Assembly (NCBI GenBank): GCA_963662795.1
Contig: OY759746.1
Location: forward strand, 1,408,001-1,472,000
Source: Spirochaetia bacterium
GTDB taxonomy: Bacteria; Spirochaetota; Spirochaetia; CADAEX01
DNA: 64,000 nucleotides
Direction of reading: 5' to 3'
The notes under the pieces were generated by a model. The model was not told the origin of the DNA, did not search any database, and was given only the letters and a program-made list of their open reading frames with translations. Of the stretch, positions 3,585 to 62,971 are shown one piece after another. Positions within the stretch are counted from its first letter, which is position 1. Every line of letters begins with the position of its first letter. Made by a program: the position numbers and the translations under genes.

Positions 3585-5345
3585 ATGGAAAAAAATACTA
3601 TTCTCGCAATAGTTTTGTCAGTCGTTATAATAACAACAGGTTTTTATGTTCAGGAAAAATTTTTCGCCGCCCCGAATACTGCGGCGGCTTCACAGACATC
3701 TGCCCAATCTGAGGCGCCCTCAACTGCGGACAAGGCCTCCGGGTCTCTTCAGGAGGCAGAACCTTCAAAAGTTGATCTTTCCGCTGTTTCTGTAATTACA
3801 AACAGGGAAGAAGACCCCGATTATTACAGGGAAATAAATCTTGAAACCGAGGTTTTTGATATTGTTTTTTCAAATCTCGGAGGCACAGTCAAATCAATCA
3901 AACTGAAAAAACACCTCGACGGCGATGTTCCTCTTGAAATGATAAATAAAAATTCAGAAGAACTCACAGCGTTTAACCTGCAGATGGGTGATTATAACGC
4001 TGAGACCCTTAAAGTTTATTTTGATATGAGGAAATATACCCAGAATGACAATATCATTGTTGAATTTACAAAAGACCTTGATATACCGGGAAGATCCGGC
4101 GTTACAATTCCCCTTACCATAATAAAGAAATATATTTTCAAAGCCAATGAATACATGATGGAACTGCAGGTGCAGATGGTAAACCGCAATAATGATGTAA
4201 TCAGGCTTGATAACAATGGTTTCGCGTATACCTTGAGCTTCGGCCCCCAGATAGGCCCGAAGTTTGTGAAACTTGATAACAGAAGGGAATTCAGAAAATA
4301 CCTGACAGTATCTGACGGAAAGAAGAAAATACATAAAATGCCGCGCGGAAAGGGAGAGGTGGAACTTAATGACAGATTTACCTGGGCCGGCATATCCGGA
4401 AAATACTTTACTGTGATAGGTATACCGGATTCAACACTGTACAGAACTGTTTTTTCAAACAGCCCTGTTGACGGTTTTGATGAAGGGGCCAGGATGTTTT
4501 TCTCGAGGCCTGTAATAAAAAGTTCCAACAGCATTGACACCTTCCGGTTTTATATAGGCCCGAAAAGGGGAAATATACTTAAATTATACAATGATGCGGA
4601 TAAAAACGGATTCAGCATAACAGGGCTTGATCTTGATCTTGTCCTTGACTCAGGCGCGATGCTCGGCTGGCTGCAGCAGATACTTAAAGTGCTTCTTAAC
4701 TTTTTTTACGGTATAATCCCCAACTACGGGGTAGCTATACTCCTTCTTACAATTTTTGTAAAGATTGTCATGTTTCCCCTTACACATAAAAGTTATGAAT
4801 CAACAAGCAAGATGTCCGGCCTTTCTCCAAAGGTAATGGAGCTTAAGGAAAAATATAAAAACAATCCGCAGAAGATGAACCAGGAAATTTCCGCGATATA
4901 TAAAAAAGAAGGGGTAAACCCTGTCGGCGGATGCCTTCCTCTTTTACTCCAGATGCCTATCTTTATAGCGCTTTACGGCCTTTTAAGCAGCCACTTTGAA
5001 CTTCGGGGAGCGGGATTCATCAGCCCGTGGATTACAGACCTTTCTGTAGCAGATTCAATTTTCAGTTTCGCACCGACTACAATTCCTGTCATAGGAAGCG
5101 ATATAAGGCTCCTTCCGATCCTGATGATTCTGACACAGCTCCTGTCAAGCAAAATGATGCAGACTCCCGATTCAGCCAACAATGCGCAGATGAAAATGAT
5201 GACCTATATGATGCCTCTTATGTTTCTGTTCATTTTATACGACGCACCGTCAGGGCTGCTGATCTACTGGACAATGACAAACGTCCTCACTGTTATTCAG
5301 CAGTATTTTGTAAACAAATTCATGAAGAAGAAAAAATCTGCATGA
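3585..5345 (+). CDS. yidC: Membrane protein insertase YidC (housekeeping, with periplasmic domain)
   Basis: 586 aa; N-terminal TM, large periplasmic region, NYGVAILLLTIFVK, GGCLPLLLQMPIF, WITDLS, PSGLLIYW. Confidence 0.97.
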   Translation: MEKNTILAIVLSVVIITTGFYVQEKFFAAPNTAAASQTSAQSEAPSTADKASGSLQEAEPSKVDLSAVSVITNREEDPDYYREINLETEVFDIVFSNLGGTVKSIKLKKHLDGDVPLEMINKNSEELTAFNLQMGDYNAETLKVYFDMRKYTQNDNIIVEFTKDLDIPGRSGVTIPLTIIKKYIFKANEYMMELQVQMVNRNNDVIRLDNNGFAYTLSFGPQIGPKFVKLDNRREFRKYLTVSDGKKKIHKMPRGKGEVELNDRFTWAGISGKYFTVIGIPDSTLYRTVFSNSPVDGFDEGARMFFSRPVIKSSNSIDTFRFYIGPKRGNILKLYNDADKNGFSITGLDLDLVLDSGAMLGWLQQILKVLLNFFYGIIPNYGVAILLLTIFVKIVMFPLTHKSYESTSKMSGLSPKVMELKEKYKNNPQKMNQEISAIYKKEGVNPVGGCLPLLLQMPIFIALYGLLSSHFELRGAGFISPWITDLSVADSIFSFAPTTIPVIGSDIRLLPILMILTQLLSSKMMQTPDSANNAQMKMMTYMMPLMFLFILYDAPSGLLIYWTMTNVLTVIQQYFVNKFMKKKKSA

Positions 5346-12599: not shown

Positions 12600-12839
12600 A
12601 TGAAAAATGAAATTGGAAATATAATACGTTTTCACAGAAAAAAGTCAGGTTTAACGCAAAAAGCCCTGGCAGATATAGCAGGTGTGGGAAAAACTGTTGT
12701 TTTTGATATTGAAAACGGGAAAAACAGCGTAAGGTTTGATAATATCCTGAAAGTCGCGGGTGTTTTAAATATAACAATTTCCTATACCGGTCCGCTCATG
12801 AAGCAATATTTAAAAGAGGCTTTAAATGAGGAAAGCTGA
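12600..12839 (+). CDS. HipB-like XRE/HTH regulator (y4mF-like)
   Basis: RKKSGLTQKALADIAGVGKTVVFDIENGK HTH. Confidence 0.9.
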   Translation: MKNEIGNIIRFHRKKSGLTQKALADIAGVGKTVVFDIENGKNSVRFDNILKVAGVLNITISYTGPLMKQYLKEALNEES

Positions 12840-13137
12840 TGTATTTGTAAATAATACTTTTTCCGGCATCCTTACTGAAATTGAAAAAGGAAAAAAATAC
12901 AGTTTTGAATATGATACGGAGTATATCGGAGATGATGTATCAATGACCATGCCGTTAAGCGGAAGAAGGTTCATCTTCAACTCATTCCCCCCTTTTTTTG
13001 ACGGTCTTCTGCCCGAAGGGTTTATGCTTGAAAGTGTTTTAAGGGGACTTAAGATAGACAGGGATGATCCTTTCAGCCTGCTTGTCGCGGTAGGCCGGGA
13101 TATGGTCGGAAATGTAACTGTCATAGAGATAAAATGA
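12826..13137 (+). CDS. HipA N-terminal-domain protein (HipS-like antitoxin)
   Basis: 103 aa; YSFEYD, SMTMPL, PPFFDGLLPEG, G.D.VG.V. Confidence 0.9.
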   Translation: MRKADVFVNNTFSGILTEIEKGKKYSFEYDTEYIGDDVSMTMPLSGRRFIFNSFPPFFDGLLPEGFMLESVLRGLKIDRDDPFSLLVAVGRDMVGNVTVIEIK

Positions 13138-14066
13138 AATACAGATGCTCCATTACCTATGAATTGTCAGATACAAGGTATTCACCTGCCGGACTCAGGT
13201 TAATAGATAAAAAACTCAACGATTTAAGGGATTTTCAGTATTCAGCTGAAGAACAACGGGCCGAATCTGCCGCCAGAGCCGCAAAAATGTCAATACAGGG
13301 TGTTCAGCCGAAAATAAGCACAAGATTCAGCTTAAGGGAAAGAACTTTTAAAATTGTTGATTTGAACGGAAATTATATATTTAAACCTCAAAATAATTTA
13401 TACAGTTATTTACCGGAAAATGAGGATCTTACAATGAAACTCGCGGGAATAACCGGTATAAATACGCCGTTCCATGGATTGTTATACTGCAAAGACGGAA
13501 GCCTTACCTACTTTATAAAAAGATTTGACCGCATGGGTAAAAACAGAAAGATCGCTGTAGAGGATTTTGCCCAGCTTACAGGAAGAACCAGGGAAACCAA
13601 ATATGATTCCAGTATGGAAAAAGTGGCTGAAGTAATAGAGAAATACTGTACATTCCCCGTACTTGATAAAATAAAGCTTTTTCAGTTAGCTGTTTTCAAT
13701 TTTATTACCGGAAATGAAGATATGCATCTTAAAAACTATTCTTTAATTTCAGTTAATGGCAGAACAGGGCTTTCTCCGTCCTATGACCTGATAAATACCA
13801 CAATTGCTGTAATAAACGCGGAAGAAGAATCTGCATTGCCTGTCGGAGGGAAGAAAAAAAACCTTAATCACAATACGTTTTTTAAATATTATGGAAATGA
13901 AAGGCTCGGGCTTAACGAAAAAATACTTGAAATTATAAAAACAAATTTTGGAAAAATAATAAGCAGTTATTATAATCTGATTGAAATCAGTTTTCTCCCT
14001 GATGATTTAAAGGAAAAGTATACCCTGCTTGTAAAGGCAAGGGCCGGCATTATCGGGCTTCTGTGA
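13134..14066 (+). CDS. HipA-family Ser/Thr kinase toxin (HipT-like)
   Basis: Gly-rich loop SIQGVQPK, ENEDLTM, IKRFDR, EDFAQL, GNEDMHLKNYS, LSPSYDL. Confidence 0.92.
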   Translation: MKYRCSITYELSDTRYSPAGLRLIDKKLNDLRDFQYSAEEQRAESAARAAKMSIQGVQPKISTRFSLRERTFKIVDLNGNYIFKPQNNLYSYLPENEDLTMKLAGITGINTPFHGLLYCKDGSLTYFIKRFDRMGKNRKIAVEDFAQLTGRTRETKYDSSMEKVAEVIEKYCTFPVLDKIKLFQLAVFNFITGNEDMHLKNYSLISVNGRTGLSPSYDLINTTIAVINAEEESALPVGGKKKNLNHNTFFKYYGNERLGLNEKILEIIKTNFGKIISSYYNLIEISFLPDDLKEKYTLLVKARAGIIGLL

Positions 14067-45147: not shown

Positions 45148-46881
45148 TTGAAAATGAGAATAAAAACAGAATATTTTATAAATGCAGTTACAGCCTCAAT
45201 AATGCTTTTTGTTTATACAACTGCAGGAGCTTATCTTCTGCCTGAAGGTATAAACGAAGTCTTTACGGAAAGGACCTGGAAATATTTTCTTATTCTGACA
45301 GTTGTACTTGCTGCTTCATTTGCAGTTTTTTCTCGTATGTGCAAAAACAGGGCCATAATCAATATAGGAAAAATTGAAAAAGTACTGGTTCATGAACTTA
45401 TTTATATCCTGATTCCTCTTACCCCCATTATTCAATACATGATTTCCAACAGGGAAATGCTCACTATATCAAGTTCAATTCTGATAATACTGTTTTTCGG
45501 GATATTATCCTTTGTTCTCTGCGTTGGAATTCCTGTCTTATTATCTTTTACAGCATCAAGACATATCCTGATTTCAGCAGGAACAGCCTTTTTATATTTA
45601 TTATTAAGCATGGTTTCACTTTCCGCAAAATACGGCTGGCACAACAAGGGTTCGCTGAAAATACAAATGCTTGTATTTTTGTCAGCATTTATAATACTGG
45701 CATTTTCAAAATATCTGCCGAAAAAAATATTCATTTCTGCGGTTCTTCTTAATTTACTGATCAACTCCTTTACTTTTTTTTATACCGCGGAAACGGTTAA
45801 TAAAGCGCAGAATAACACTGGAGAAATTACAGTTGGCAGTGAACTTGTAAATAAGGAAATCAAAAAGTTAAACGATATATTTTTGTTTGTTTACGAATCA
45901 TATGCAGATTATGAAACGGTTAAGCATTATGGTTTCGATAACAAAGCGCAACTGGAATATTTAGAAGAAAAAGGTTTTAATATTTACCCAGGAATATATT
46001 CACTGGGTACGCCTTCTATTCCATCCATCTCAAATGTATTTAATATAAACAGCAATGTCCACTACAATAGAGAATATATAATCGGCGGCGGTAATGTTCA
46101 TAAAATATTAAAAACGAAAGGCTATAAATCATACGGTGTTTTTCAAAATGATTATTTCTTTCGGGGAATGGGACCTGATAAAATAAAGTATGATTATCTT
46201 TTTCCTGCCCCGCTTCCTCTAAAAGAAGATAAACTGCTTATTAAGACAATACTGGCCGGTGAATTTAATGATGAAGTCAGTCTTGAGGGTGTTGGTACGG
46301 AATCTTATGTAAATGAAAAACAAAAAATAATTAAAAGTGATTTTCAATATCCAATAATATTTTATACGCATAATCCCAAACCGGGACATGGGCCCAGCGC
46401 CGGGGTGCTTCCTGCGGAAGTAGATAAATATATTGAATTATACATAAACCAGATTCAACAGGTTAACAGAGAAATGGAGCAGGACATTAATCTGGTATTA
46501 AAATATAAACCTGATGCGATAATTATAATTGCAGGGGATCATGGTCCTTCATTAACCAAGTCAGGGTATGGGCTGCAGAAAGGAAAAGGGGGATTCACAG
46601 CCGGGGATGTCGACAGGTATGATATCCAGGATAGATTTGGAGCGTTTCTTGCAATAAAATGGCCGGAAATTAATTATAAGCAAACAGACAAAATAAAAAT
46701 TCTACAGGACATTTTTCCGGCTGTATTCTCATACTTATTTGAGGATGACAAATTATTCAATGAAACAAGAATGGATAGCGAAATATTAAACCCCAAGAAA
46801 ACACTTGGCGTATCAGTTAATGATGGTATTATTGCGGGTGGAGCGGATGATGGTGAGCCGTTATTTTTATTTAAGGAATAA
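45148..46881 (+). CDS. Multi-TM membrane protein with C-terminal sulfatase/alkaline-phosphatase-superfamily domain (LtaS/EptA-like architecture)
   Basis: About 7 N-terminal TMs; FLFVYESY, YTHNPKPGH and IIIAGDHG metal-binding motifs. Confidence 0.75.
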   Translation: MKMRIKTEYFINAVTASIMLFVYTTAGAYLLPEGINEVFTERTWKYFLILTVVLAASFAVFSRMCKNRAIINIGKIEKVLVHELIYILIPLTPIIQYMISNREMLTISSSILIILFFGILSFVLCVGIPVLLSFTASRHILISAGTAFLYLLLSMVSLSAKYGWHNKGSLKIQMLVFLSAFIILAFSKYLPKKIFISAVLLNLLINSFTFFYTAETVNKAQNNTGEITVGSELVNKEIKKLNDIFLFVYESYADYETVKHYGFDNKAQLEYLEEKGFNIYPGIYSLGTPSIPSISNVFNINSNVHYNREYIIGGGNVHKILKTKGYKSYGVFQNDYFFRGMGPDKIKYDYLFPAPLPLKEDKLLIKTILAGEFNDEVSLEGVGTESYVNEKQKIIKSDFQYPIIFYTHNPKPGHGPSAGVLPAEVDKYIELYINQIQQVNREMEQDINLVLKYKPDAIIIIAGDHGPSLTKSGYGLQKGKGGFTAGDVDRYDIQDRFGAFLAIKWPEINYKQTDKIKILQDIFPAVFSYLFEDDKLFNETRMDSEILNPKKTLGVSVNDGIIAGGADDGEPLFLFKE

Positions 46882-46887
46882 AATAGT

Positions 46888-47580
46888 ATGTTCCATGTTA
46901 TTTACCTGGTTTTTATATATCCAATAGAATTTATTATAAAGACTATACTGGAAACAGCTTATAATTTTACAGGAAATTATGGTTTTTCGCTTATTATCTT
47001 AAGTATTTGTATAAGTTTAATTCTTCTGCCATTTTATCGGTTCACAGAATATTTGCAAAACAGGGAACGAAAAGTAAGGAATAAAATGCAGTCTCAGATA
47101 GACGATCTTAAAAGTGTCTATAAGGGTTATGAACAGCATTTATATCTGAAAGCACTCTACAGGCAGAATAATTATCATCCCTTACTTGCACTGCAGGCGT
47201 CTTTGGGATTGCTGATTCAACTCCCTTTTTTTATCGCAGCATATCATTTTATTTCCGGGTATGAATTACTTAATGGGGTTGTGTTCTGGATTTTTAGGGA
47301 TCTTGGGAATCCTGACGGCCTGATTGAAACGGCCGGGATGAATATAAATATCATGCCTGCTGTCATGACTTTTTTTAATCTTTCAGGTGCTTACTATTAC
47401 GGAAAAAATCTTTCATCTAACGAGAAATACCAAATGTATTTTGTTGCCTTGCTTTTTTTTATTCTTCTTTATAATTCTCCGGCGGGCCTTCTTATTTACT
47501 GGACCTGCAATAATATTTTCAGTTTTATTAAATACATCATTATTCACTTTATGAATATCAGATCGAGTGAAAAAACGTGA
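46888..47580 (+). CDS. Second, minimal YidC/Oxa1-family protein
   Basis: 230 aa; GNYGFSLIILS, LLIQLPFFIAAY, DLGNPD, NIMP, YNSPAGLLIYWTCNN align with the core of YidC at 3585-5345. Confidence 0.85.
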   Translation: MFHVIYLVFIYPIEFIIKTILETAYNFTGNYGFSLIILSICISLILLPFYRFTEYLQNRERKVRNKMQSQIDDLKSVYKGYEQHLYLKALYRQNNYHPLLALQASLGLLIQLPFFIAAYHFISGYELLNGVVFWIFRDLGNPDGLIETAGMNINIMPAVMTFFNLSGAYYYGKNLSSNEKYQMYFVALLFFILLYNSPAGLLIYWTCNNIFSFIKYIIIHFMNIRSSEKT

Positions 47581-48892
47581 GGCAAAAATGATTCTTGTTT
47601 GTGTTTTATTTTTAATAATTATTCAACCTGCACATGCATACCTTGATCCCGGAAGCGGAAGTATGCTTATCAGCGTGATAATTGCCTTATTGGCTACATT
47701 GTATTACTTTGCTAAAAATATTTTCTATAATAAATCAAAATATTTTTTTAAAAAAAACAGCAGTATACAGACAGAAAAAAATGATATAGTTTTCTATTCC
47801 GAATCAGGATGCTACTGGAATGTGTTTTTTCCGATTATAAGGGAATTAAGCGAACGCGGGATAACCTCCTCATATTATACCAGCGACAAAAAGGATCCCG
47901 GATTGTCAACCGACATACCTGAACTGGATAAAAAATATATTGGTGACGGGTATGAAGCTTTTTTCTTCTTGAATCATCTTGAAACATGTATTGTTGTGAT
48001 GACCACTCCGGGCTTGGATGTCCTTCAGATAAAACGCAGTAAAAAAGTAAAGCATTACTGTCACATTGTTCATGGTCTTGAAGACACATCCACTTATTCT
48101 CCATACGGTGTTGATTATTTTGATTCTGTGCTGGTCAATGGAGAACATCAGGTTTTTGTAATCAGGGAACTGGAAAAAGAGCGAAGTCTCCCGGAAAAAA
48201 AAGTTGAAATAATTGGAAGTACATATCTTGATGTAATGCGCGAAAATATTAATAAAAAAGTACCTGATAATCTGAATATATTACCAGATAAAAAAACAGT
48301 CCTGCTTGCTCCCAGCTGGGGTGAAAAGGGATTTTTGAAGAACCATGCTGAATCTATACTGAATAGTCTGATTGAAGAAGATTACAATATAATCCTTCGC
48401 CCTCATCCGCAGAGTTTAAAAGCTGAAGCGGATGTTATCAAACTGCTTGAAAATAAATTTGCCGATAAAAAATATTTAATCTGGGACAAAACATCATCAG
48501 GACTTGAAGCAATGCGAAAGTCAGATGTCATGATTTCAGATTTTTCGGGCATAATATTTGATTATATTTTTCTGTTTTCAAAACCTGTTATTGTAACTGA
48601 TTTCAAGTTGGACTGCCGTAAATATGATATGAATATTCTTAAATCAAAAAGCAGCACATTAATGAAATTAATTAATGAAGATAAAATAGGCTACAGGTTT
48701 AAGAGCCGTGATTATAAAAACATTAAGAAAATTGTACAAATCGCATTATCTGATAATCCTTATAAACAATATGTAGATGAAATAAAAGATACAGTTAATT
48801 GTTTTCCGGGACAGGCTGGAAAAAGAGGCGCAGACTTTCTGCAGAGTGAATTGAAAAAGATAGTAACTGATAAAAATAAAGGTACCAGATGA
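47567..48892 (+). CDS. CDP-glycerol glycerophosphotransferase-family (TagB/TagF-like) protein with signal-peptide/YLDPGSGS/TM leader
   Basis: HIVHG, LLAPSWG, LRPHP, SDVMISDFSGIIFDY..KP; N-terminal PAHA-YLDPGSGSMLISVIIALL; GTG start. Confidence 0.8.
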   Translation: MKKREAKMILVCVLFLIIIQPAHAYLDPGSGSMLISVIIALLATLYYFAKNIFYNKSKYFFKKNSSIQTEKNDIVFYSESGCYWNVFFPIIRELSERGITSSYYTSDKKDPGLSTDIPELDKKYIGDGYEAFFFLNHLETCIVVMTTPGLDVLQIKRSKKVKHYCHIVHGLEDTSTYSPYGVDYFDSVLVNGEHQVFVIRELEKERSLPEKKVEIIGSTYLDVMRENINKKVPDNLNILPDKKTVLLAPSWGEKGFLKNHAESILNSLIEEDYNIILRPHPQSLKAEADVIKLLENKFADKKYLIWDKTSSGLEAMRKSDVMISDFSGIIFDYIFLFSKPVIVTDFKLDCRKYDMNILKSKSSTLMKLINEDKIGYRFKSRDYKNIKKIVQIALSDNPYKQYVDEIKDTVNCFPGQAGKRGADFLQSELKKIVTDKNKGTR

Positions 48893-51225
48893 AAACTGAC
48901 CGCTTAAACAATCACACCCTGCTTATATTGTTATTGGCTTTCGTCATCATTGTCCCCTGGATGTGTGTAGATTTCCTGACAAGTGTTTTAGATGCGGCGA
49001 ATAAAAAAATTGTATCATCCATCCATAATGCTGTTGTGCTTCCAGTCCGTGTAAAGCTTACCGGGCTTGATGATGAACAGCTCTCCCTGGTCCGGGTTTA
49101 CCGTGTATCCCCAAGGGGTAACCGCAGTTTATACCGCCTTAATGAAGGCGTTTTCTATAAAGAAGCAAAATATTTTGCAGATATTGAACTTGAAATTCTT
49201 GATAGCGATATTTCTGACTTTGAGAAAATTACTCTGGAAACAGGAAGTCGTGAATATGAAGTATTACCTGAAAATCTTATAACTGCGGATAGCAAAAGTC
49301 TGGCTGATTCTTCATCGGTATTTTCACTTAAAAAAACATTTAATCTTAAAAAATCAAAGTCTTTTATCCCTCAGTTCAAAGGTTTGATAAATTATCGCGG
49401 TGACATGCAAATGGTATTACTGATTTTTTTACGTACAGCGATCCCTGTGATTATTTCCCTTTTACTGTTTTTATGGTGGTCGCGTTTTTCACCTGTATTG
49501 CTTTTTACTTTGTCCTGGTTTGTGATTGGAATTGCCGGATTTCTTTTAAGTCCTGTATATCTGCAGATCCGGCATTTAATCTTTACATATTTTCTTATTT
49601 CAATACGTAATGGTTTTTATATTGTGTTTTTATATTCTTCATTGAAAATAATAACACAGAAAAAGTCTTCCCTTGCTGAAATCGATCCAGATAATAACAA
49701 TAATTCAATATTTACTTTTGCAGCAGTGATTTCAATTTTTATTGCCGCCTTTGTGCTCCGGATCTGGAATCTCAATTATATGCAGGGTGTTGATACTTTC
49801 AATCTTACATCTGCCCGTGCGTTAAATGATACAGGTGTTTTTTCCTATCTGCGGAACTGGGATCTCACATACATGCTTGCCTGGGTTTTTAGAAATTTTG
49901 GAATTAGCCTGACTGCGGCAAGGTTGCCTTTTGTGCTTATTTCTCTTGTTATTATGGGTCTTACCGGATTAATGCTTCGACAATTCGGCCGGAAAGCTTT
50001 ATTAACAGGCCTTATATTATATGCAATATCACCGGTTGCAATTGAAAAAGCAAGTGTTATCCGTGAATATGGTGAAAATGTTTTTCTTACAGCATTAATC
50101 TGCACAATACTTCTGGCTGTTTATGTTAAATATAGAAAACGGATGTTTACAGCTCTGTTTTGGATGACAATTGTGATATCTTTTTTCTCCATTGCCATTC
50201 TGATCTACGGCCCTGCTGTACGGAATTTAACAATAAATACCTCGCTTCAGGCATCAGGTTTTCTCTACATATCCCTGTCTGTCATGCTCCTGTGGAATAA
50301 TTATCCGTCGCTTAAGCGAATAATTATAGCCGCAGGACTCATCTGCGTAATCACTGTTTTTGTAATAGCGCCGAAACTTGGACCTTTTTCAGGCAGATTT
50401 CGTCCCTCTTTTAATTTTATTTTCTTTTATTTTAACCCAATGGTGCATCATCCCATGCAATGGTTTTCTTTCCAGAGCATAGGATTGGTACTGCCTCTTA
50501 TGCTGCCGGTTTTTGCTCTTTTTAACCGGAAAAACAGGGATGTTATTATAGCGGTATTTATGACTTTTTTTGGCAGTATCGCTTTATTTTCTGTATATAT
50601 GGGCAATACGATAAGAAGCAGATATCTTTATCATATATCCCCATTTTATATTATTCTTATAACTCTTGGACTTATCTGGCTTTGGGAAAAAATATCTGAA
50701 CATGAGCTTTCTGATAAAGCAGGAAAAAGATATAAATTGAGGGGCTTTTTTATTGCCGGATGTGTATTAATATTCTGGCTGCCGAATACAGTTATTGCCG
50801 CAAAGCATGAAATCCCTTCAGGTCAGGAAAGGGATGTAACTTCTTTCGGTTATCGCGATTATTTTATCGATTTTTATGAATATTTAATTGCAAGCGGGTT
50901 AAGAAAATCTGATGCAATTGTTATGGAAACTCACAGACCTGACCTTCTATGCTGGCTTCTTGACCGGCCGGTAAATAATAAATATGTTATTAAACGTGGA
51001 AGCTATGATATATCAGAAAATATGTATCTTGAAAATGTCTATGGCGTAAAACAGCTTGAAACGGCCGTTGAAAAACATGATAAAGGTTATTTTATTACAA
51101 GAAATGTTGCATATGACAGAAATCCCGTTTTTATAAAAGGTATTAAACTTAAATATTTAACAACTATTCATAATCATTCTTTTTATATCTGGGACAAAAA
51201 AATTAGCGGATCTAAAAAAAGTTAA
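48889..51225 (+). CDS. Large polytopic GT-C-fold glycosyltransferase (ArnT/PMT_2-like)
   Basis: More than 12 TMs; AFVLRIWNL...D, ARLP, AISP.AI..AS.IREY, RYL motifs. Confidence 0.65.
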   Translation: MKTDRLNNHTLLILLLAFVIIVPWMCVDFLTSVLDAANKKIVSSIHNAVVLPVRVKLTGLDDEQLSLVRVYRVSPRGNRSLYRLNEGVFYKEAKYFADIELEILDSDISDFEKITLETGSREYEVLPENLITADSKSLADSSSVFSLKKTFNLKKSKSFIPQFKGLINYRGDMQMVLLIFLRTAIPVIISLLLFLWWSRFSPVLLFTLSWFVIGIAGFLLSPVYLQIRHLIFTYFLISIRNGFYIVFLYSSLKIITQKKSSLAEIDPDNNNNSIFTFAAVISIFIAAFVLRIWNLNYMQGVDTFNLTSARALNDTGVFSYLRNWDLTYMLAWVFRNFGISLTAARLPFVLISLVIMGLTGLMLRQFGRKALLTGLILYAISPVAIEKASVIREYGENVFLTALICTILLAVYVKYRKRMFTALFWMTIVISFFSIAILIYGPAVRNLTINTSLQASGFLYISLSVMLLWNNYPSLKRIIIAAGLICVITVFVIAPKLGPFSGRFRPSFNFIFFYFNPMVHHPMQWFSFQSIGLVLPLMLPVFALFNRKNRDVIIAVFMTFFGSIALFSVYMGNTIRSRYLYHISPFYIILITLGLIWLWEKISEHELSDKAGKRYKLRGFFIAGCVLIFWLPNTVIAAKHEIPSGQERDVTSFGYRDYFIDFYEYLIASGLRKSDAIVMETHRPDLLCWLLDRPVNNKYVIKRGSYDISENMYLENVYGVKQLETAVEKHDKGYFITRNVAYDRNPVFIKGIKLKYLTTIHNHSFYIWDKKISGSKKS

Positions 51226-52995: not shown

Positions 52996-53424
52996 ATGAA
53001 AATTATTGGATACACAACAGGAGTTTTTGACCTTTTTCATGTGGGTCATCTGAATATTCTTCGAAACGCAAGGCTTGAATGCGACTATCTTATTGTTGGT
53101 ATTACTACAGACGAATTGTCAGAAGAAAAAAAAGGGAAAAAACCGATTATTCCGTTTTCTGAGAGAATGGAAATAGTTGAAAATATCAAATTCGTTGATA
53201 ACGTAGTACCACAGACAAATTATAATAAGATGGAGGCCTGGAATAATCTTCATTTTAACAAAATGTTTGTTGGTGATGACTGGAAAGGCAGTGATAAATG
53301 GCAACAGCTGGAAGATGATTTTAAAAAACTTGGAGTAGAAATATGTTATTTCCCTTATACAAAACATACTTCAAGTACAAAGATTAGAAATATTATTGAC
53401 GCCATGGAAAAAATGGAAGAATAA
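52996..53424 (+). CDS. tagD: Glycerol-3-phosphate cytidylyltransferase (TagD-like)
   Basis: GYTTGVFDLFHVGHLN, ER.EIV, VGDDW, YTKHTSST. Confidence 0.85.
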   Translation: MKIIGYTTGVFDLFHVGHLNILRNARLECDYLIVGITTDELSEEKKGKKPIIPFSERMEIVENIKFVDNVVPQTNYNKMEAWNNLHFNKMFVGDDWKGSDKWQQLEDDFKKLGVEICYFPYTKHTSSTKIRNIIDAMEKMEE

Positions 53425-56278: not shown

Positions 56279-57646
56279 TTGAGAAAAGTTATACGGGACA
56301 TTGCCGGGAAACTGTCTGAAAAACTGGTAAGGATTATGCCTTTCAGGTATTTCCCCGCATCGCATATTCTGCTGGAGCAGTTTTTCAGATACAGGATGAG
56401 GAAAAATGATTTCAGGGCAGTAAGGGATTACTGCCTTTATTTTTCAGAAAAACCTGGTTCACCTGATAAAATAAAAAAAATATCAGCTGATTACTTCTGT
56501 AAAATAAGCCTTGATGACAAGCCTGATATTGATGTAATAAAAAACTTAAGGACCGGATATCAGGAAAAAATATCACAGAGCCTGGATTTTCTTGCTTCGG
56601 GTGAAAAAGAGAAGGCATGTTCTTCATTCGTGGATGCCCTGCCTTTCGCCGGAATTCCACGGCCGGCTGCCTCTCATCTTGAAAAGGCTTTCAGTATTGT
56701 CACAGGCAGCTCTTCAGGGGAAAAAAAGGCTTCTGCCTGCGGTGACTCAGAAAATGATTATAGGCAGGCGAAAAAAATAATCCTTTCCGGAATGTACTGG
56801 AGCGGCACCGGCGCTTTGTATGATTTCTTCAGGGAGTTTGAGGATGTAAAGGCCTTGCCTGTTGAGCAGCGGCTCTGGAAGGAATCGGACTACAGCCTCG
56901 GCTGGGGGCTTAAAAATATAGAGACAATTGATGATGAAGGTTTGAGACAATACTTTTTGAGGCTTTTTCTGATACCCCTTACCGGGCTTGCCATGCCCCG
57001 ATGCTGGCAGGATGTTCTCGGCGGAAAAGTCGGCATTAATTCAGTTAAAAATGATAAAAACGGAAAATATTCGCTTTCCATATCTAAATTCTTTAGTACA
57101 ATAACAGATTTGAGAGCGGAAAAAAAGCTTGATTATTCCTCTTTTTTAAGCTCTTCTGCTGTATTTACTGACCGGCTTCTAAACGCGCTTTCGGGTGATT
57201 TCAGCGGAAGTATCCTTCCTGACAACGCTGTTCATATCGGCGATATTGAGAATTTCAGATTTTTCAGCAACGCGCACCTTGTTTGTGTTTTCAGGGACCC
57301 CCGCTCAAATTACGCTGCGCGTTATCACGAAAACATTCGGTTCAGAAAAAATCCTGAGGACTTTATAAAATACTACCGCGGGACAAGGGAAAATTATGTT
57401 AAGCAATTGTCCGCCTTTAAGGACTGTTCAGATAAAATCATTGAAGTGCAGTTTGAGGATTTTATTCTCTCGGAAGAATACAGAAAATCGCTTGCTGAAA
57501 AGCTTGGTCTTGATCATTCACTCTGGAGCAGGCGTAAGTATTTCAGGGCCCATAAATCGGTGAAGAATGTTTACAATTACAGGAATTTCTCCGACAAAGC
57601 AGTCATGGATTTAATCGGCAGCTCGCTTAAGGAGTACTGTGTTTGA
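56279..57646 (+). CDS. Sulfotransferase-fold protein with N-terminal helical domain
   Basis: P-loop-like ILSGMYWSGTGALYD, VFRDPRS, FEDF; TTG start. Confidence 0.6.
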   Translation: MRKVIRDIAGKLSEKLVRIMPFRYFPASHILLEQFFRYRMRKNDFRAVRDYCLYFSEKPGSPDKIKKISADYFCKISLDDKPDIDVIKNLRTGYQEKISQSLDFLASGEKEKACSSFVDALPFAGIPRPAASHLEKAFSIVTGSSSGEKKASACGDSENDYRQAKKIILSGMYWSGTGALYDFFREFEDVKALPVEQRLWKESDYSLGWGLKNIETIDDEGLRQYFLRLFLIPLTGLAMPRCWQDVLGGKVGINSVKNDKNGKYSLSISKFFSTITDLRAEKKLDYSSFLSSSAVFTDRLLNALSGDFSGSILPDNAVHIGDIENFRFFSNAHLVCVFRDPRSNYAARYHENIRFRKNPEDFIKYYRGTRENYVKQLSAFKDCSDKIIEVQFEDFILSEEYRKSLAEKLGLDHSLWSRRKYFRAHKSVKNVYNYRNFSDKAVMDLIGSSLKEYCV

Positions 57647-58854: not shown

Positions 58855-59994
58855 TTGAATATCGTAGTTGAGAATATTGTAAAAAATTCTTTAGGCAGAG
58901 GTATGATACAATTTGGATTTATTATTCTTAAAATAGTAAAAAATTTATCTATATATAATTTTGCCTATTACTTTTACCCAATTAATCCTCCTGAAAAGCC
59001 AGGCTATGTGACATCTGCCGGCAGAAAAGGAATCTCAGGATTTGCTATTGGAAGTGAAAAGGATGTCCCTTCAAAGATCGAACTTCTGGTTGACGGCAAC
59101 GTGATAAATACAACTTACGCTGCGCAGAAAATATATTCCCCTTCAAAATATTACGGTGAATTTACAGGATTTTATTTTCCGATGAAACATCTATGGAATT
59201 TAATTGATAAAAAACAAAAAATTGAAGTTTTAGCAGAAGGAAAACCTCTCAGATTCCGTGCCGGTAAAAATGGGGAAGCCGTGATTCCAAATTTGGGTAA
59301 ATTGGGAACGAATGAAAAAAAATCTGAAAAAAATATTATTGATTATATATCAGAAGGTAATTTGATTAATAAATTTGGACGATTACAGCCGCCAAGAAAT
59401 AAAAATATTGAATGGACTACAAAAGTATTATCATCTTTTATTTATGTTAATCAGTTGTTTGAGAAATATTTTAAAAAGCAGCTTTTCGTTTTTTACGGGG
59501 GGCTTCTCGGCTTTGCAAGAGAAGGTGGTATAATCTCTCATGACTGTGATATGGACCTTGCGTATTTCAGCGAGGAAACCGATGCTGACAAGGTCCGGGA
59601 TGAGTTTTATAGGATAGCGGAAAAACTGATAAGGGAGTGCAGTGATCTTGTTATTTCTGTGTCTAAAATTAATTTTACAAAAATGAAAGTAAGTATTACC
59701 CCTGCCTGGATAACCCCGGATGGTGATTTTGCATGCACCTTTGCCTATGTAGGCGATAAATTTAAAGTAACAAGGGAAGATATCCTGCCGCTTAAAAAGA
59801 CAGAGTATGAAGGTTATGAGTTAAACCTTCCCGCCAATCCTGTGAATGTTGTAAAATACCTTTACGGCAGAGGCTGGAAGTATCCTGACCCGGGGTGGAA
59901 ATGGCTGATTGAGTATAAGCTGCGACCGGCAATATTTAAAGCAAGACTTACAAGTTCTCAGGTTAAAAAATTAAACAAAATTATTTCTCAATAA
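58855..59994 (+). CDS. LicD-family protein with extra N-terminal domain
   Basis: YGGLLGFAREGGIISHDCDMDLAY, LYG.GWKYPD. Confidence 0.75.
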   Translation: MNIVVENIVKNSLGRGMIQFGFIILKIVKNLSIYNFAYYFYPINPPEKPGYVTSAGRKGISGFAIGSEKDVPSKIELLVDGNVINTTYAAQKIYSPSKYYGEFTGFYFPMKHLWNLIDKKQKIEVLAEGKPLRFRAGKNGEAVIPNLGKLGTNEKKSEKNIIDYISEGNLINKFGRLQPPRNKNIEWTTKVLSSFIYVNQLFEKYFKKQLFVFYGGLLGFAREGGIISHDCDMDLAYFSEETDADKVRDEFYRIAEKLIRECSDLVISVSKINFTKMKVSITPAWITPDGDFACTFAYVGDKFKVTREDILPLKKTEYEGYELNLPANPVNVVKYLYGRGWKYPDPGWKWLIEYKLRPAIFKARLTSSQVKKLNKIISQ

Positions 59995-60048: not shown

Positions 60049-61611
60049 ATTAAAAAAATAACCATATTGTTCTTTGCCTTTTTATGGACAATTCCGCTGT
60101 ATGCCCAATATTTCAACCTGGAAAAAGAAACAGAATATCTGCAAAAAGCATATTTACAGAACTCAGTTGTTTTTCCGACAACATCATATCCGGTCTCAAG
60201 ACGGCACCTGATTATCATAGCCGAAAATCTGGAAGGTATGCTTTCAGATCCGGTAGAGAAGGCAGAGGTGCAGGATGTTATCCTGAAGCTAAAAACTAAA
60301 GGCAATATCGGTGTCAAAGTAAAATCAACATTTGTTTATAATCATCAAAGTGAAAACCTTTGGGATGATTATTATGAGAATTTTTTCGGTATACCCCCCC
60401 TTTTTGAAATTTATGCTGTAATAAGCAGCGACAGGGTTGCCCTTGAGGCAGGTGAAACCTGGCGGCGGCAGTTTGAGTCCTTTCCTGAAACAAATCTGCC
60501 TGAAACCAGGGAAGGCGATTTTATTGCTATGGAAAACCAGTTCCTGTCGCTCGGTCTTTTTTCCTATCAGTTTGAGGAAATGGAATTCCTTCTCGGGAGA
60601 ACCCCTGTCCATTTCGGGGACCCATCGTTTAATTCTCTTTTGCCTTCTGACCGCCTTCCCTTTATGGATATTGCAGGCCTGAAAATACCTGTAGGCCCGT
60701 TTGAGCTTGTCGGGCAGATCGCGACACTCGAGAACCGGAAAGCAAAGGAAGACCAATACGATTCCGGAGGGGAGTTCGAATTCGGCAGCAATACGATAAT
60801 GACCGCTTTGCATAAATTTGAATACTCAAGTACCTGGATAAGGGTTTCCGTTACAGGTTTTTCAATTATATCAAGGCCTGATAACGGGTTTATGCTCGGC
60901 GATGTATTTCCTGTTTTTTCCTGGCACACAGCTGATGTCGGATGGCATAATCTTTCTCTTATCGGTGATTTTTCCGTATCTCCCTTCAGGGGCTTAAATA
61001 TGTTTTTTCAGACAGGATTTGACGATATTAACGCGAGCGATGTATTCGGGATAAATGATTCTGAAATCCCAACTATACAGGCCGCCATTATCGGTCTGTC
61101 TTATATTAAAGATATTAATGATAAGCGTCAGATCGGGATTGATTTTGAACTTGGAAAAACCCATTATCTCTGGGGCAATTTTTATGACGGAGTTACCTCT
61201 GATCCTGATGAGGGTGACCATTATTTTGAAAAAGCGGTTTACAGGGTTTTTATGGATAAGGAGAACAGAATTCTTCCCCTTACTTCCCCGTACGGGCCGG
61301 GGGCTTTCTGGAATGAAATATCTGTCAGCCTGAAAGGAAATACCTTCTTCCACTACAGCTTAAAATATTTTCATCTTACCAAAAACACTCTTGCGGACCT
61401 AATCAAAACACCATTCAAAGCTGATACAGATATTGAGGAAGGGCCGCGGGATGTTATCAGAAACATCAGCATTATGGCTGAATATATTCCCTCTGATAAT
61501 CTTACGCTTTTTGCTGAACCGGGGCTGCTTCTTTACAATGATGATCTGTCCTTTGATTTTATGATCGGGGGAACAATAACCTTTTCAAAATTCGGCAATT
61601 ATAATAAGTAG
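60049..61611 (+). CDS. Exported protein, probable Wzi-like (capsule assembly) outer-membrane protein
   Basis: Signal peptide (I/M)KKITILFFAFLWTIPLYA-Q, GR..VHFG...L.PSD..P, beta-rich sequence. Probable ATT start at 60049; ORF track start is 60067. Confidence 0.55.
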   Translation: MKKITILFFAFLWTIPLYAQYFNLEKETEYLQKAYLQNSVVFPTTSYPVSRRHLIIIAENLEGMLSDPVEKAEVQDVILKLKTKGNIGVKVKSTFVYNHQSENLWDDYYENFFGIPPLFEIYAVISSDRVALEAGETWRRQFESFPETNLPETREGDFIAMENQFLSLGLFSYQFEEMEFLLGRTPVHFGDPSFNSLLPSDRLPFMDIAGLKIPVGPFELVGQIATLENRKAKEDQYDSGGEFEFGSNTIMTALHKFEYSSTWIRVSVTGFSIISRPDNGFMLGDVFPVFSWHTADVGWHNLSLIGDFSVSPFRGLNMFFQTGFDDINASDVFGINDSEIPTIQAAIIGLSYIKDINDKRQIGIDFELGKTHYLWGNFYDGVTSDPDEGDHYFEKAVYRVFMDKENRILPLTSPYGPGAFWNEISVSLKGNTFFHYSLKYFHLTKNTLADLIKTPFKADTDIEEGPRDVIRNISIMAEYIPSDNLTLFAEPGLLLYNDDLSFDFMIGGTITFSKFGNYNK

Positions 61612-61648: not shown

Positions 61649-62971
61649 ATGGCAGAGAATAAAAAAACCGTTTATGTCGGCATGAGCGCAGACCTTATTC
61701 ACCCAGGCCACCTCAATATATTAAAGCACGCCAGGGAGCTTGGTTCAGTGACGGTAGGCCTGCTTACAGACAAGGCCATCGCGAGCTATAAAAGGCTTCC
61801 CTACATGACCTTTGAGCAGAGAAAGCAGGTTATAGAAAATATAAAAGGGGTGGATTCTGTAGTGGCACAGGATACACTTGATTATGTCCCGAACCTTAAG
61901 CAGTATAAACCGGACTTTGTTGTCCACGGCGATGACTGGAGGGAGGGGGTCCAGAGGAAGACACGCCAGAGCGTTATTGATGCCTTATCACAGTGGGGTG
62001 GCGAGCTTGTTGAAGTTTCATACACTCCCGATATTTCATCGACAAGGCTCAATGACGGGCTTAAAAAAATGGGTACAACTCCGCAGAGAAGGCTCGGGAT
62101 GCTGCGCCGCCTGATAAACGCCAAACCTGTAGTTACATTCATGGAAGCGCACAGCGGCCTGAGCGGGCTGATAATCGAGAACATCAGTGAAAACGATGGA
62201 AAAGGTGTAAAAAAGGTTTTTGACGGAATCTGGCTTTCAAGCTTTACGAATTCCGCAAGCCGCGGAAAACCTGATATAGAAGCTGTCGATGTAACAGCGA
62301 GGATACAGACTTTAAATGAGATAATCGAGGTTACTACAAAACCTGTTATCTATGACGCGGGAAGCGGCGGCAGGGGAGAGCATTTCGGCTTTACCGTGAG
62401 GACCCTTGAGCGCTTCGGTGTTTCCGCCGCGGTAATTGAGGATAAGGCATCTTTTTCACGGAATGAGGGAAATCCTGAGAACGCGAACGCCGCAGGCGCC
62501 CTGGTTGATATAAATGAATTCTGCCGGAAAATTGAGGCCGGAAAAAAGTCCAGGGTAACGGATGATTTTATGGTAATTGCCAAGCTTGAAAGCCTTGTTT
62601 CCGGCATGGGAACAGGTGAGGCGATGAAAAGGGCCTCCGCGTATCTCGAGGCAGGGGCTGACGGGATACTTATTCACAGCCGCGGCAGTGACGGACGTGA
62701 CATACATGAGTTCTGCAGTAAATTCAGGGGTAAGGGACTTAAGGCCCCTCTTGCTGCAATGCCTACTTCCTATAACAGCGTTTATGAATCGGAACTGCAC
62801 GAAATGGGCATAAATATAATAATCCACGCCAATCATCTGATCAGGAGCGCATACCCCGCGATGACAAAAGCCGCGAAAATGGTTTTAAAATACGGGCGTT
62901 CATTCGAGTCGGATCAAATGACGGTACCGGTGGAGGAAATTTTATCTGTCATACCTGAAGGGGACTGGTAA
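61649..62971 (+). CDS. Cytidylyltransferase-PEP mutase (AepX-type) fusion with degenerate mutase motifs
   Basis: N-terminal [21 protein letters not shown]; C-terminal [40 protein letters not shown]. Confidence 0.9.

Follow-up and report, generated by a model that had tools for sequence, protein, structure and literature searches.

Why should a second protein of the YidC/Oxa1 family be encoded between two putative envelope enzymes, in a genome that already carries a housekeeping yidC? This question is raised by a 64,000-nucleotide stretch of DNA from a Spirochaetia bacterium (GenBank assembly GCA_963662795.1, contig OY759746.1, positions 1,408,001 to 1,472,000), hereafter the window, to which all coordinates refer unless another locus is named. 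Three genes follow one another on its + strand. The first (45148-46881, +) encodes a 577-aa polytopic membrane protein with an extracytoplasmic sulfatase-fold domain resembling those of LtaS, EptA and PbgA, which we call Sulf-A; the second (46888-47580, +) encodes a 230-aa divergent YidC/Oxa1-fold core, the YidC-like protein; and the third (47567-48892, +) encodes a 441-aa TagB/F-like cytoplasmic phosphotransferase with an N-terminal anchor, the TagF-like protein. The first two open reading frames (ORFs) are 6 bp apart and the second overlaps the third by 14 bp. The housekeeping yidC (3585-5345, +; 586 aa; PF02096, 211 bits) encodes a periplasmic domain, has the context rnpA-yidC-jag and lies 41.5 kb upstream of the module. 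A preliminary description, made from the letters of the DNA, had reported three linked ORFs with this spacing, the YESY and GDHG strings of the 577-aa protein, the domains of all three products, a canonical yidC about 41 kb upstream and a setting in a glycan locus; our coordinates, the Pfam matches and the Wzm/Wzt, glycosyltransferase and LicD genes around the module agree with it on these points. Comparative sequence analysis supports the three genes as a conserved functional module, and we propose, with roughly an even chance of being right, that they encode a membrane complex that puts a phosphonate or phosphate head group on the cell envelope via a transmembrane relay.

The plainest answer to the question would be that the 230-aa protein is simply another housekeeping insertase, a paralog of the YidC2/SpoIIIJ type which came to lie in a glycan locus by chance. 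Databases name the members of its family "YidC/Oxa1 family membrane protein insertase", and the protein matches PF02096 (60KD_IMP; 85.7 bits, cut-off 35), passes the TIGR03592 domain model (92 bits, cut-off 84.3) and aligns over residues 8-217 with YidC2 in the PDB (3wo6, E 9.6e-12). With YidC, YidC2, SpoIIIJ and Oxa1 it shares a five-helix core, a cytoplasmic hairpin and a C-terminal YW..N motif. However, all 18 YidC/SpoIIIJ equivalog models fail on it, the best with a score of 74.8 against a cut-off of 891 and SpoIIIJ with 56.4 against 377, and it has neither a signal peptide nor a periplasmic domain. Furthermore, the column of the groove Arg or Lys of canonical YidC, which we take to be R72 in Bacillus halodurans YidC2 and R366 in Escherichia coli YidC, holds Ser43 in this protein. 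Lys or Arg occupies the column in 21 of 22 housekeeping YidC rows versus none of the 76 rows of the new clade, which have Asn, Ser, Thr, Gly or Phe instead (16 rows in set A1, 47 in set A3, 12 derived from the loci described below and 1 borderline, the sets partly overlapping). The window's own housekeeping YidC has Lys there. The sole exception among the 22, an Asn in the Butyrivibrio housekeeping YidC (L092), is either an alignment slip or real.

The preliminary description had considered that the paralog might cluster with housekeeping YidC2/SpoIIIJ. In a tree of 98 core domains, obtained with a quick IQ-TREE search, a single branch of length 1.35 with an SH-aLRT support of 100 instead parts 22 housekeeping sequences from 75 clade members and the borderline one. 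Clade members of Erysipelothrix, Butyrivibrio, Eggerthellaceae and Treponema are placed apart from the housekeeping copies of the same organisms, and those from Firmicutes and Actinobacteria group with the spirochaete ones. Erysipelothrix, Butyrivibrio, Treponema putidum, Haliotispira and an Eggerthellaceae metagenome-assembled genome (MAG) each carry one high-scoring housekeeping YidC plus one to five extra copies. By the alignments and the tree, the 230-aa protein is a member of a YidC-fold clade distinct from housekeeping YidC; the separate clade, the groove without charge, the failed equivalog models and the recurrence, in many phyla, of fusions with or neighbours from the same two families of enzymes essentially exclude an ordinary housekeeping paralog.

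The clade has conserved features of its own. Polar groove and transmembrane (TM) residues (S39, Q111, N154, Y204-W205-T206 and N208-N209) are invariant across phyla, and the cytoplasmic hairpin carries the clade-invariant residues K75, G80, E82 and Y91. Unlike canonical YidC/Oxa1 proteins, members lack the groove Arg/Lys, the periplasmic domain and a lipoprotein signal, coexist with a housekeeping copy and are mostly fused to an enzyme. Database relatives of similar length number 47 (36-69% identity), all with PF02096 only. Longer relatives number 292, and the 120 best of them span 404-1057 aa; in 41 of these 120 a precomputed PF00884 match stands beside PF02096, Treponema, Brachyspira and Sphaerochaeta being among the sources.

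What, then, are the enzymes that accompany it? Sulf-A matches the Pfam Sulfatase family (PF00884) just above the cut-off (29.5 bits, cut-off 25, residues 244-481). Neither the 577-aa protein nor an 8-sequence profile gave a sequence match in the PDB at E up to 1, and the fold had to come from modelling. The AlphaFold2 model (predicted local distance difference test, pLDDT, 90.8; predicted template modelling score, pTM, 0.86) has about seven N-terminal helices followed by an alpha/beta domain, and Foldseek aligns it with LtaS (4uor, E 4e-7) and with PbgA (6xlp, 600 columns), EptA (5fgn, 593 columns) and MCR-1 in full length. At the level of the model, this confirms the TM domain plus sulfatase fold of the LtaS/EptA type that the preliminary description had read from the sequence. 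The similarity to LtaS, EptA (MCR-1), OpgB and GacH lies in the N-terminal multi-helix membrane domain with an outward sulfatase-fold domain and, putatively, in a conserved set of an acidic residue, Ser/Thr, His and Asp-His. In 65 homologs, Y252, H414 and D464-H465 of Sulf-A are invariant, with D or E at 250 and T or S at 290; E250 (mostly D in homologs), S290 (mostly T), H414 and D464-H465 are conserved both in this set and in a set of 8, and we assigned their putative catalytic roles from the spacing and from the residues of LtaS/EptA. By analogy, Sulf proteins would draw a phospho head group from a lipid and place it on an acceptor in the envelope. They differ from the known enzymes in that Sulf-A has no sequence-level match to any solved member and in that the Sulf families are tied by fusion or adjacency to a YidC-fold domain and a TagF-like enzyme; we know of no characterised LtaS/EptA-type member with either partner.

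The third protein belongs with TagB, TagF, TarF, TarL and the TagF-like capsule polymerases by virtue of its C-terminal catalytic domain. PF04464 (Glyphos_transf) matches residues 208-353 with 53.4 bits (cut-off 22.1); the match spans positions 155-299 of the 367 in the profile and thus the catalytic half only. A profile of the family matches the TagF-like polymerases Cps3D (8qoy, E 3e-8) and TarL (8va1, E 2.6e-4), which share its His and SD[FY]S motifs, the latter being aligned. H169, R278-P279-H280-P281-Q282, D325 and S327 are invariant in 34 homologs. Unlike the established members, the protein scores 22.4 bits against a cut-off of 550 with the TarF equivalog model and has an anchor that is exclusive to its kind, described below.

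The linkage of the three genes is not due to chance. The preliminary description had allowed that no conserved linkage might be found in other genomes and had pointed to gene neighbourhoods, fusions and co-occurrence as the places to look; all three measures spoke for a conserved linkage. A scan with one genome per species yielded 593 confirmed stretches, the best 80 of which gave the 73 loci analysed here; their ORFs were called and searched with four proteins of the window, the three above and a 778-aa neighbour. The loci span Spirochaetota, Sumerlaeota, Lachnospiraceae, Erysipelothrix, Desulfovibrionaceae, Sutterella, Helicobacteraceae, Eggerthellaceae, Odoribacter and others. In 53 of the 73 loci the YidC-like gene directly adjoins a TagF-like gene (gap of at most 100 bp, same strand), and in 60 one lies within 3 kb. 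Thirteen loci have none, and six of them (L009, L019, L045, L047, L054 and L055) lie on short contigs or at contig edges. Among 98 YidC-like ORFs, 15 are shorter than 300 aa, 73 reach at least 800 aa and 10 are intermediate, several of the latter being truncated by contig ends. By their length, we count the ORFs of at least 800 aa as fused, usually to an LtaS/EptA-like membrane enzyme.

Three architectures recur. In the first, that of the window, a short YidC-like gene and a TagF-like gene accompany a free Sulf-A gene (L008, L012, L014, L016, L018 and L021); in the second, the short YidC-like gene stands with a TagF::Sulf-A fusion (L039, L040 and, twice, L042); in the third and most frequent, a YidC::Sulf fusion stands with a TagF-like gene, in tandem arrays of up to six copies (L041). 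In the 20-kb locus L041, from an uncultured Clostridia MAG, six tandem YidC::sulfatase-fold genes of 854-861 aa each fill L041:2282-17693, and a TagF-like gene is absent. Lone YidC::sulfatase-fold genes occur in two further Clostridia MAGs, one Saccharofermentans and one Clostridiales (L038:9350-11971 and L063:9932-12601); glycan or activation genes were not found near them.

The fused sulfatase, which we call Sulf-B, has conserved D520, T557 and D800-H801 in 47 YidC::Sulf proteins. BLASTP of a 927-aa fusion of this type against the 577-aa and 778-aa proteins of the window gave nothing significant beyond a common "II..DHG" string, and on this comparison Sulf-A and Sulf-B are different subfamilies. 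Sulf-A itself has 786 relatives at E up to 0.001 and 234 at E up to 1e-30 among 1.84 billion representatives searched. Scanned with our own YidC, TagF and sulfatase profiles, the best 150 of the 786 comprise 13 YidC::Sulf-A fusions, 2 TagF::Sulf-A fusions and 135 proteins with the sulfatase profile only, 24 of which reach at least 640 aa with other N-terminal extensions. Since such Rosetta-stone fusions exist with each of the two, the Sulf-A gene is tied both to the YidC-like and to the TagF-like gene.

Co-occurrence was assessed in a sample of 151 genomes from the phylum of the window, apparently Spirochaetota, as the housekeeping YidCs of genomes of its class neighbour that of Treponema putidum in the tree. 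The YidC-like clade is present in 23 of them (E up to 1e-30; mostly above 130 bits, weakest 110; 31-48% identity), and the TagF-like protein in 24 (E up to 1e-30), including all 23 clade-positive genomes, counts that include related, non-independent genomes and carry no statistical claim. The one genome with only the TagF-like protein is 86% complete, and other members of its genus have both genes. Clade-positive genomes cover at least seven families and hold up to five clade copies each; the remaining YidC matches, with 75-96 bits, are housekeeping YidC. Complete clade matches lie in frames of about 900-1011 aa, except the short gene of the window and a 224-aa gene in a 1.4-Mb genome of the same phylum (G095). 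This divergent gene (L120 = G095:C3:30988-31761) has a long branch and a groove Thr, and beside it lies a shorter TagF-like match in an open frame of 371 aa (G095:C3:31931-32782); the pair possibly represents a reduced module.

A second copy of the module is found in the genome of the window itself. A PF02096 search of the whole assembly matched three genes; two are the housekeeping yidC and the 230-aa gene, and the other lies 9 kb beyond the end of the window. At L004:9214-13787 (G000:C1:1481214-1485787), a 927-aa fusion is followed by a 428-aa TagF-like protein and a TagD-like cytidylyltransferase. The first 225 residues of the fusion are 42% identical to the YidC-like protein, and the 428-aa protein is 39% identical to the TagF-like protein of the window and has the same N-terminal motif. 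The AlphaFold2 model of the fusion (pLDDT 83.9, pTM 0.77) is aligned by Foldseek with full-length PbgA (6xlp), MCR-1 (9nww) and EptA (5fgn) over 620-660 columns, 624 of them for EptA, and matches LtaS as well. Because of these model matches and the gene order, the second copy is read as a TagF-like gene preceded by one for a fusion of the YidC::LtaS/EptA-like type.

Could the YidC-like protein then be a dedicated insertase? Such an insertase or assembly chaperone would insert the N-terminal tail of the TagF-like partner, help to fold the sulfatase-fold enzyme, or both, with no lipid or small-molecule traffic. The anchor of the TagF-like protein bears directly on this possibility. The motif Y[LI]DPG[ST]G[SG] occurs in 61 of the 65 TagF-like ORFs listed, those of the window and of the paralogous module included; the other four are three ORFs truncated by contig ends and one unrelated TagF. 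The motif is directly followed by a hydrophobic helix and then a Lys/Arg-rich stretch, and is preceded either by a leader ending in small-x-small residues (AxA-like) or by only 1-10 residues. In the window, a signal-peptide-like leader read from the sequence (residues 1-24, 47567..47638, +), ending in PAHA and presumably cleaved before the Tyr (PAHA|Y), leads into YLDPGSGS (residues 25-32, 47639..47662, +), a TM helix and a Lys-rich stretch. A six-frame scan of the 3.93-Mb genome found the motif twice only, in the two TagF-like partners, and in the 2781 ORFs from the 73 loci each of its 60 instances falls in a TagF-like homolog. From the topology and the predicted cleavage, the mature protein would have its motif outside and its enzyme inside the membrane.

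This anchor resembles those of substrates that use YidC only, such as Pf3 coat and MifM, in its very short Asp-containing N-tail, single TM helix and positive C-side. Many partners have no signal peptide, so that their tail requires a YidC-type route, and the family is a true YidC fold with a Y[LI]DPG[ST]GS motif exclusive to its TagF-like partners, all as expected of a dedicated insertase. In diderm members, however, the tail comes after a Sec-type leader and YidC is not needed. Canonical YidC is thought to use the groove Arg/Lys for acidic tails, and this residue is lost in 76 of 76 clade rows. Each of up to six tandem YidC::Sulf paralogs (L041) retains its own YidC domain, and up to five copies per genome in addition to the housekeeping YidC would be wasteful for a catalyst that acts once per molecule; some fusions, moreover, have no TagF-like neighbour at all. 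We consider a dedicated insertase unlikely, also in view of the modelled contact between the two proteins, which confidently involves the folded catalytic domain and not the anchor.

That contact was obtained from a model of the YidC-like protein (16-row alignment) with mature TagF-like residues 25-441 (34-row alignment), run with three controls. The complex has an ipSAE of 0.76 (0.76, 0.75 and 0.77 in individual runs) versus 0.01 for the best of the three controls, the runs share at least 90% of contacts, and partner pLDDT is at least 81. The ipSAE mark is passed by 116 of 157 solved complexes and by 2 of 215 mismatched pairs, a calibration that is rough here since our own alignments were used. 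YidC-like residues 70-93, the cytoplasmic hairpin with K75, G80, E82 and Y91, face TagF-like residues 152-154, 178-183, 206-208 and 349-357, which flank the conserved His motif; these hairpin residues are specific to the clade and thus a further difference from YidC/Oxa1. The model supports docking of the TagF-like catalytic domain on the YidC-like cytoplasmic hairpin. We know of no solved YidC-TagF complex, and recall of a known complex by the model is therefore unlikely. An initial idea, that the TagF anchor docks in the YidC groove, was not retained: the model gave no confident contacts there, which neither supports nor excludes it.

The modelled contact fits a relay and also fits an arrangement in which the YidC-like protein is only a docking platform, holding two enzymes with separate substrates and with no loaded carrier and no crossing through the groove. 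The TagF-like enzyme would then modify a lipid-linked glycan inside, and the sulfatase-fold enzyme would use phosphatidylglycerol or phosphatidylethanolamine outside. The interface in the model is indeed a protein-protein contact on the cytoplasmic hairpin; YidC::Sulf genes without a TagF-like gene in unrelated contexts are what one would expect if common membrane lipids can act as donors; and the LicD and TarF-like enzymes of the window could do the cytoplasmic decoration on their own. Yet a platform would not need the polar groove and TM residues that are invariant across phyla, and TagF::Sulf fusions, which join a cytoplasmic to an outer enzyme, are hard to explain if the two reactions have nothing to do with each other. 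A single pathway is likewise suggested by the nearly complete co-occurrence and by the close association with genes for head-group activation, and we regard a pure scaffold as improbable.

Which head group would such a pathway carry? Activation genes were sought with Pfam on 128 of 340 neighbouring ORFs (loci L005-L033) and on 38 ORFs from loci without a TagF-like gene, and with a domain-resolved phmmer scan of all 73 loci, and were found in 47 of the 73. Phosphonate genes, namely phosphoenolpyruvate (PEP) mutase-cytidylyltransferase, phosphonopyruvate decarboxylase (Ppd), 2-aminoethylphosphonate (AEP) transaminase-nucleotidyltransferase or Fe-ADH, occur in 22 loci; a choline/ethanolamine kinase with a nucleotidyltransferase in 4; an NTP_transf_3-type nucleotidyltransferase alone in 18, a soft class that possibly includes sugar enzymes; and a TagD-like enzyme alone in 3. 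A PEP mutase adjoins the module in all loci of the window's architecture, and a PntC-Ppm fusion lies beside it in many other loci. Thus, the neighbours of the TagF-like genes differ from those of the established TagB/TagF family in being phosphonate or Lic-type activation genes and not tagD alone. The preliminary description was right in seeing a TagB/F-like transferase, as the PF04464 catalytic domain shows; cytidine diphosphate (CDP)-glycerol as the specific donor is probably wrong, because phosphonate genes are present in 22 of the 73 loci and Lic-like or TagD-like genes in others. In many loci the donor is probably a cytidine monophosphate (CMP)-phosphonate rather than CDP-glycerol, CDP-choline or CDP-ethanolamine being the further candidates to which neighbouring genes point, and in other loci it is likely another CDP-activated head group.

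In the window, a PntC-Ppm fusion of cytidylyltransferase and PEP mutase (61649..62971, +; PF13714 173.9 bits, PF01467 55.7 bits) lies 13 kb downstream of the module, with FtsX-type permease and LolA-like genes next; a decarboxylase was not found next to it. A second PntC-Ppm gene follows directly on a phosphonopyruvate decarboxylase gene at about 587 kb, outside the window (G000:C1:586682-589224). An AEP-transaminase-like gene lies at 1.78 Mb of the same genome. A TagD-like cytidylyltransferase (52996..53424, +; PF01467 70.8 bits; TIGR01518 94.7 bits, under the cut-off of 165) is a candidate supplier of a CDP-activated head group.

The relay that we propose would run in three steps. In the first, the TagF-like enzyme, cytoplasmic and held by its N-out single-span anchor, would take a CMP- or CDP-activated head group, here probably a phosphonate (AEP or a relative) or a CDP-alcohol, and move it onto a membrane lipid in the inner leaflet. 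In the second, with the TagF-like enzyme docked on the YidC-like hairpin, the polar uncharged groove would let the head group of the loaded lipid through to the outer leaflet and the spent lipid back. In the third, the LtaS/EptA-like enzyme would load the head group on its Ser/Thr nucleophile and hand it to a surface acceptor, which may be a glycan, a lipid or a protein. LtaS, EptA, OpgB and GacH take phospho head groups from outer-leaflet phospholipids and leave diacylglycerol. The tandem arrays would be explained as well, since one TagF-like enzyme could supply several YidC::Sulf paralogs with differing acceptors. A comparable logic, in which a cytoplasmic loading enzyme, a membrane crossing element and an outward transferase cooperate, is found in GtrA/GtrB/GtrV and ArnC/ArnEF/ArnT, which are often variable, multi-copy, serotype-modifying modules. 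The likeness to these systems is one of logic alone: the present module would use three unrelated protein families and a phospho or phosphono head group instead of a sugar.

We favour the relay because reported lipid scrambling by insertases and LtaS-type chemistry combine here with what the gene fusions, the modelled docking and the neighbouring activation genes indicate. Two papers report that YidC and other insertases scramble lipids (10.1101/2023.09.01.555937; PMC11997395). The relay had been put forward in the preliminary description. Its three-gene basis stands; the movement of a carrier by the YidC-like part, like the lipid carrier itself, its crossing via the groove and the identities of donor and acceptor, is something that we infer. 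Attachment of the head group to the glycan, also proposed there, holds as envelope decoration in general, and the acceptor need not be the glycan of this locus.

In its stronger form, the proposal is that the YidC-fold domain has been recruited from insertion to serve as a built-in conduit, a scramblase or channel dedicated to a lipid loaded with the head group. At its boldest, the proposal is that the YidC-like domain would repeatedly pass the Y[LI]DPG[ST]GS N-tail of the TagF-like protein across the membrane, the tail itself acting as a protein-borne head-group carrier. We offer this recruitment tentatively, as a possibility that is on balance doubtful.

Several observations weigh against the relay. 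No activation gene was found in 26 of the 73 loci, many of these 26 being short contigs. Seven amply flanked loci (L034, L038, L041, L053, L059, L063 and L065) have a YidC::Sulf gene and no TagF-like neighbour, so that the TagF step would be dispensable in some cases or encoded elsewhere, and in two of these, L038 and L063, the fusion sits between alr and secY/adk. The confident contacts in the complex model are exclusively cytoplasmic, with neither the anchor helix nor the groove among them. The lipid intermediate is hypothetical, and TagF-family enzymes could act directly on a lipid-linked glycan in the cytoplasm. The YidC-like groove lacks the charge thought important in canonical YidC, its scrambling activity is hypothetical, and the relay function of every module member is read from genes and models.

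The surroundings of the module are those of an envelope locus. The window begins in the dnaN-recF...rnpA-yidC-jag region and continues with a long glycan locus of low G+C content (17-62 kb), which holds Wzm/Wzt ATP-binding cassette transporter genes, more than 10 glycosyltransferase genes, methyltransferase and LicD genes, and, besides the TagD-like cytidylyltransferase and PntC-Ppm genes, a TarF-like gene. Because the G+C content is 0.23-0.35 across about 20-54 kb of the window, much below that of the flanks (0.37-0.49) and the genome mean (0.397), the composition suggests lateral acquisition of the glycan locus. In the same operon as the module, a gene for a 778-aa polytopic protein (48889-51225, +) overlaps the TagF-like gene by 4 bp and is translationally coupled to it. 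The protein has no Pfam match, and the ESM Atlas gives PMT_2/ArnT clusters as look-alikes by feature (score 0.97, a lead only); it is probably a GT-C (ArnT/PMT_2-like) glycosyltransferase. It was considered as a fourth module member and rejected, with zero homologs across the 73 loci.

Three poorly annotated ORFs between the glycosyltransferase genes and PntC-Ppm, one with a weak Sulfotransfer_3 match (56279-57646, +), one with a weak LicD C-terminal match (58855-59994, +) and one with no match (60067-61611, +), may be further head-group transferases. A small ORF (12826-13137, +) overlaps one with a HipA_C kinase domain (13134-14066, +); the two, a possible HipBA-type toxin-antitoxin pair, separate the origin region from the glycan locus.

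The preliminary description knew of no characterised system of this kind, and in the full text of open papers we likewise found no description of any fusion or linkage between a YidC domain and an enzyme of the LtaS/EptA-like or TagF-like kind. The genome paper of Brachyspira hyodysenteriae has yidC once, in an unrelated sentence. Passages of PMC8810332 on the Erysipelothrix gene ERH_1440 ("TagF"), a possible member of the module, do not mention YidC. The closest link to known biology is the Pnt pathway, next to whose genes (PntC-Ppm, Ppd, AEP transaminase or Fe-ADH) the module lies in the 22 loci above. In the searched passages of one paper, PntC makes CMP-AEP, the later steps are called enigmatic, and only LicD-like phosphotransferases or glycosyltransferases are named (Rice et al. 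2019, PMC6697681); the words "sulfatase", "insertase" and "TagF" have no occurrence in these passages. A passage on Selenomonas phosphonate clusters mentions "multiple sulfatases" (Li and Horsman 2022, PMC8942020). A YidC domain is unmentioned in these text passages of both papers.

To conclude, this module is widespread and apparently undescribed. It extends a known kind of process, envelope phospho-decoration by LtaS/EptA-type enzymes, and is a candidate for the steps by which phosphonates activated with CMP, and probably other head groups activated with CDP, reach the cell surface. Its hosts include the spirochaetes Treponema and Brachyspira, many gut Clostridia, Erysipelothrix, Desulfovibrio and others. 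Hundreds of entries named "YidC/Oxa1 family membrane protein insertase" are enzyme fusions of 850-1000 aa and merit re-annotation. If the YidC fold serves as a built-in lipid or head-group conduit, this would be categorically new: an insertase acting as a lipid transporter, a state made permanent by gene fusion in hundreds of genomes. The module would in that case supply the transfer step that is missing from the tailoring of bacterial surfaces with phosphonate (AEP). The YidC/Oxa1 superfamily would gain a second role, other than insertion, inside an enzyme complex, and there would be a natural, genetically separable system for testing the recently reported lipid scrambling by insertases. Multi-copy, tandem and laterally spread genes are typical of surface-antigen variation, and the module may thus explain serotype-like differences among the bacteria that carry it.

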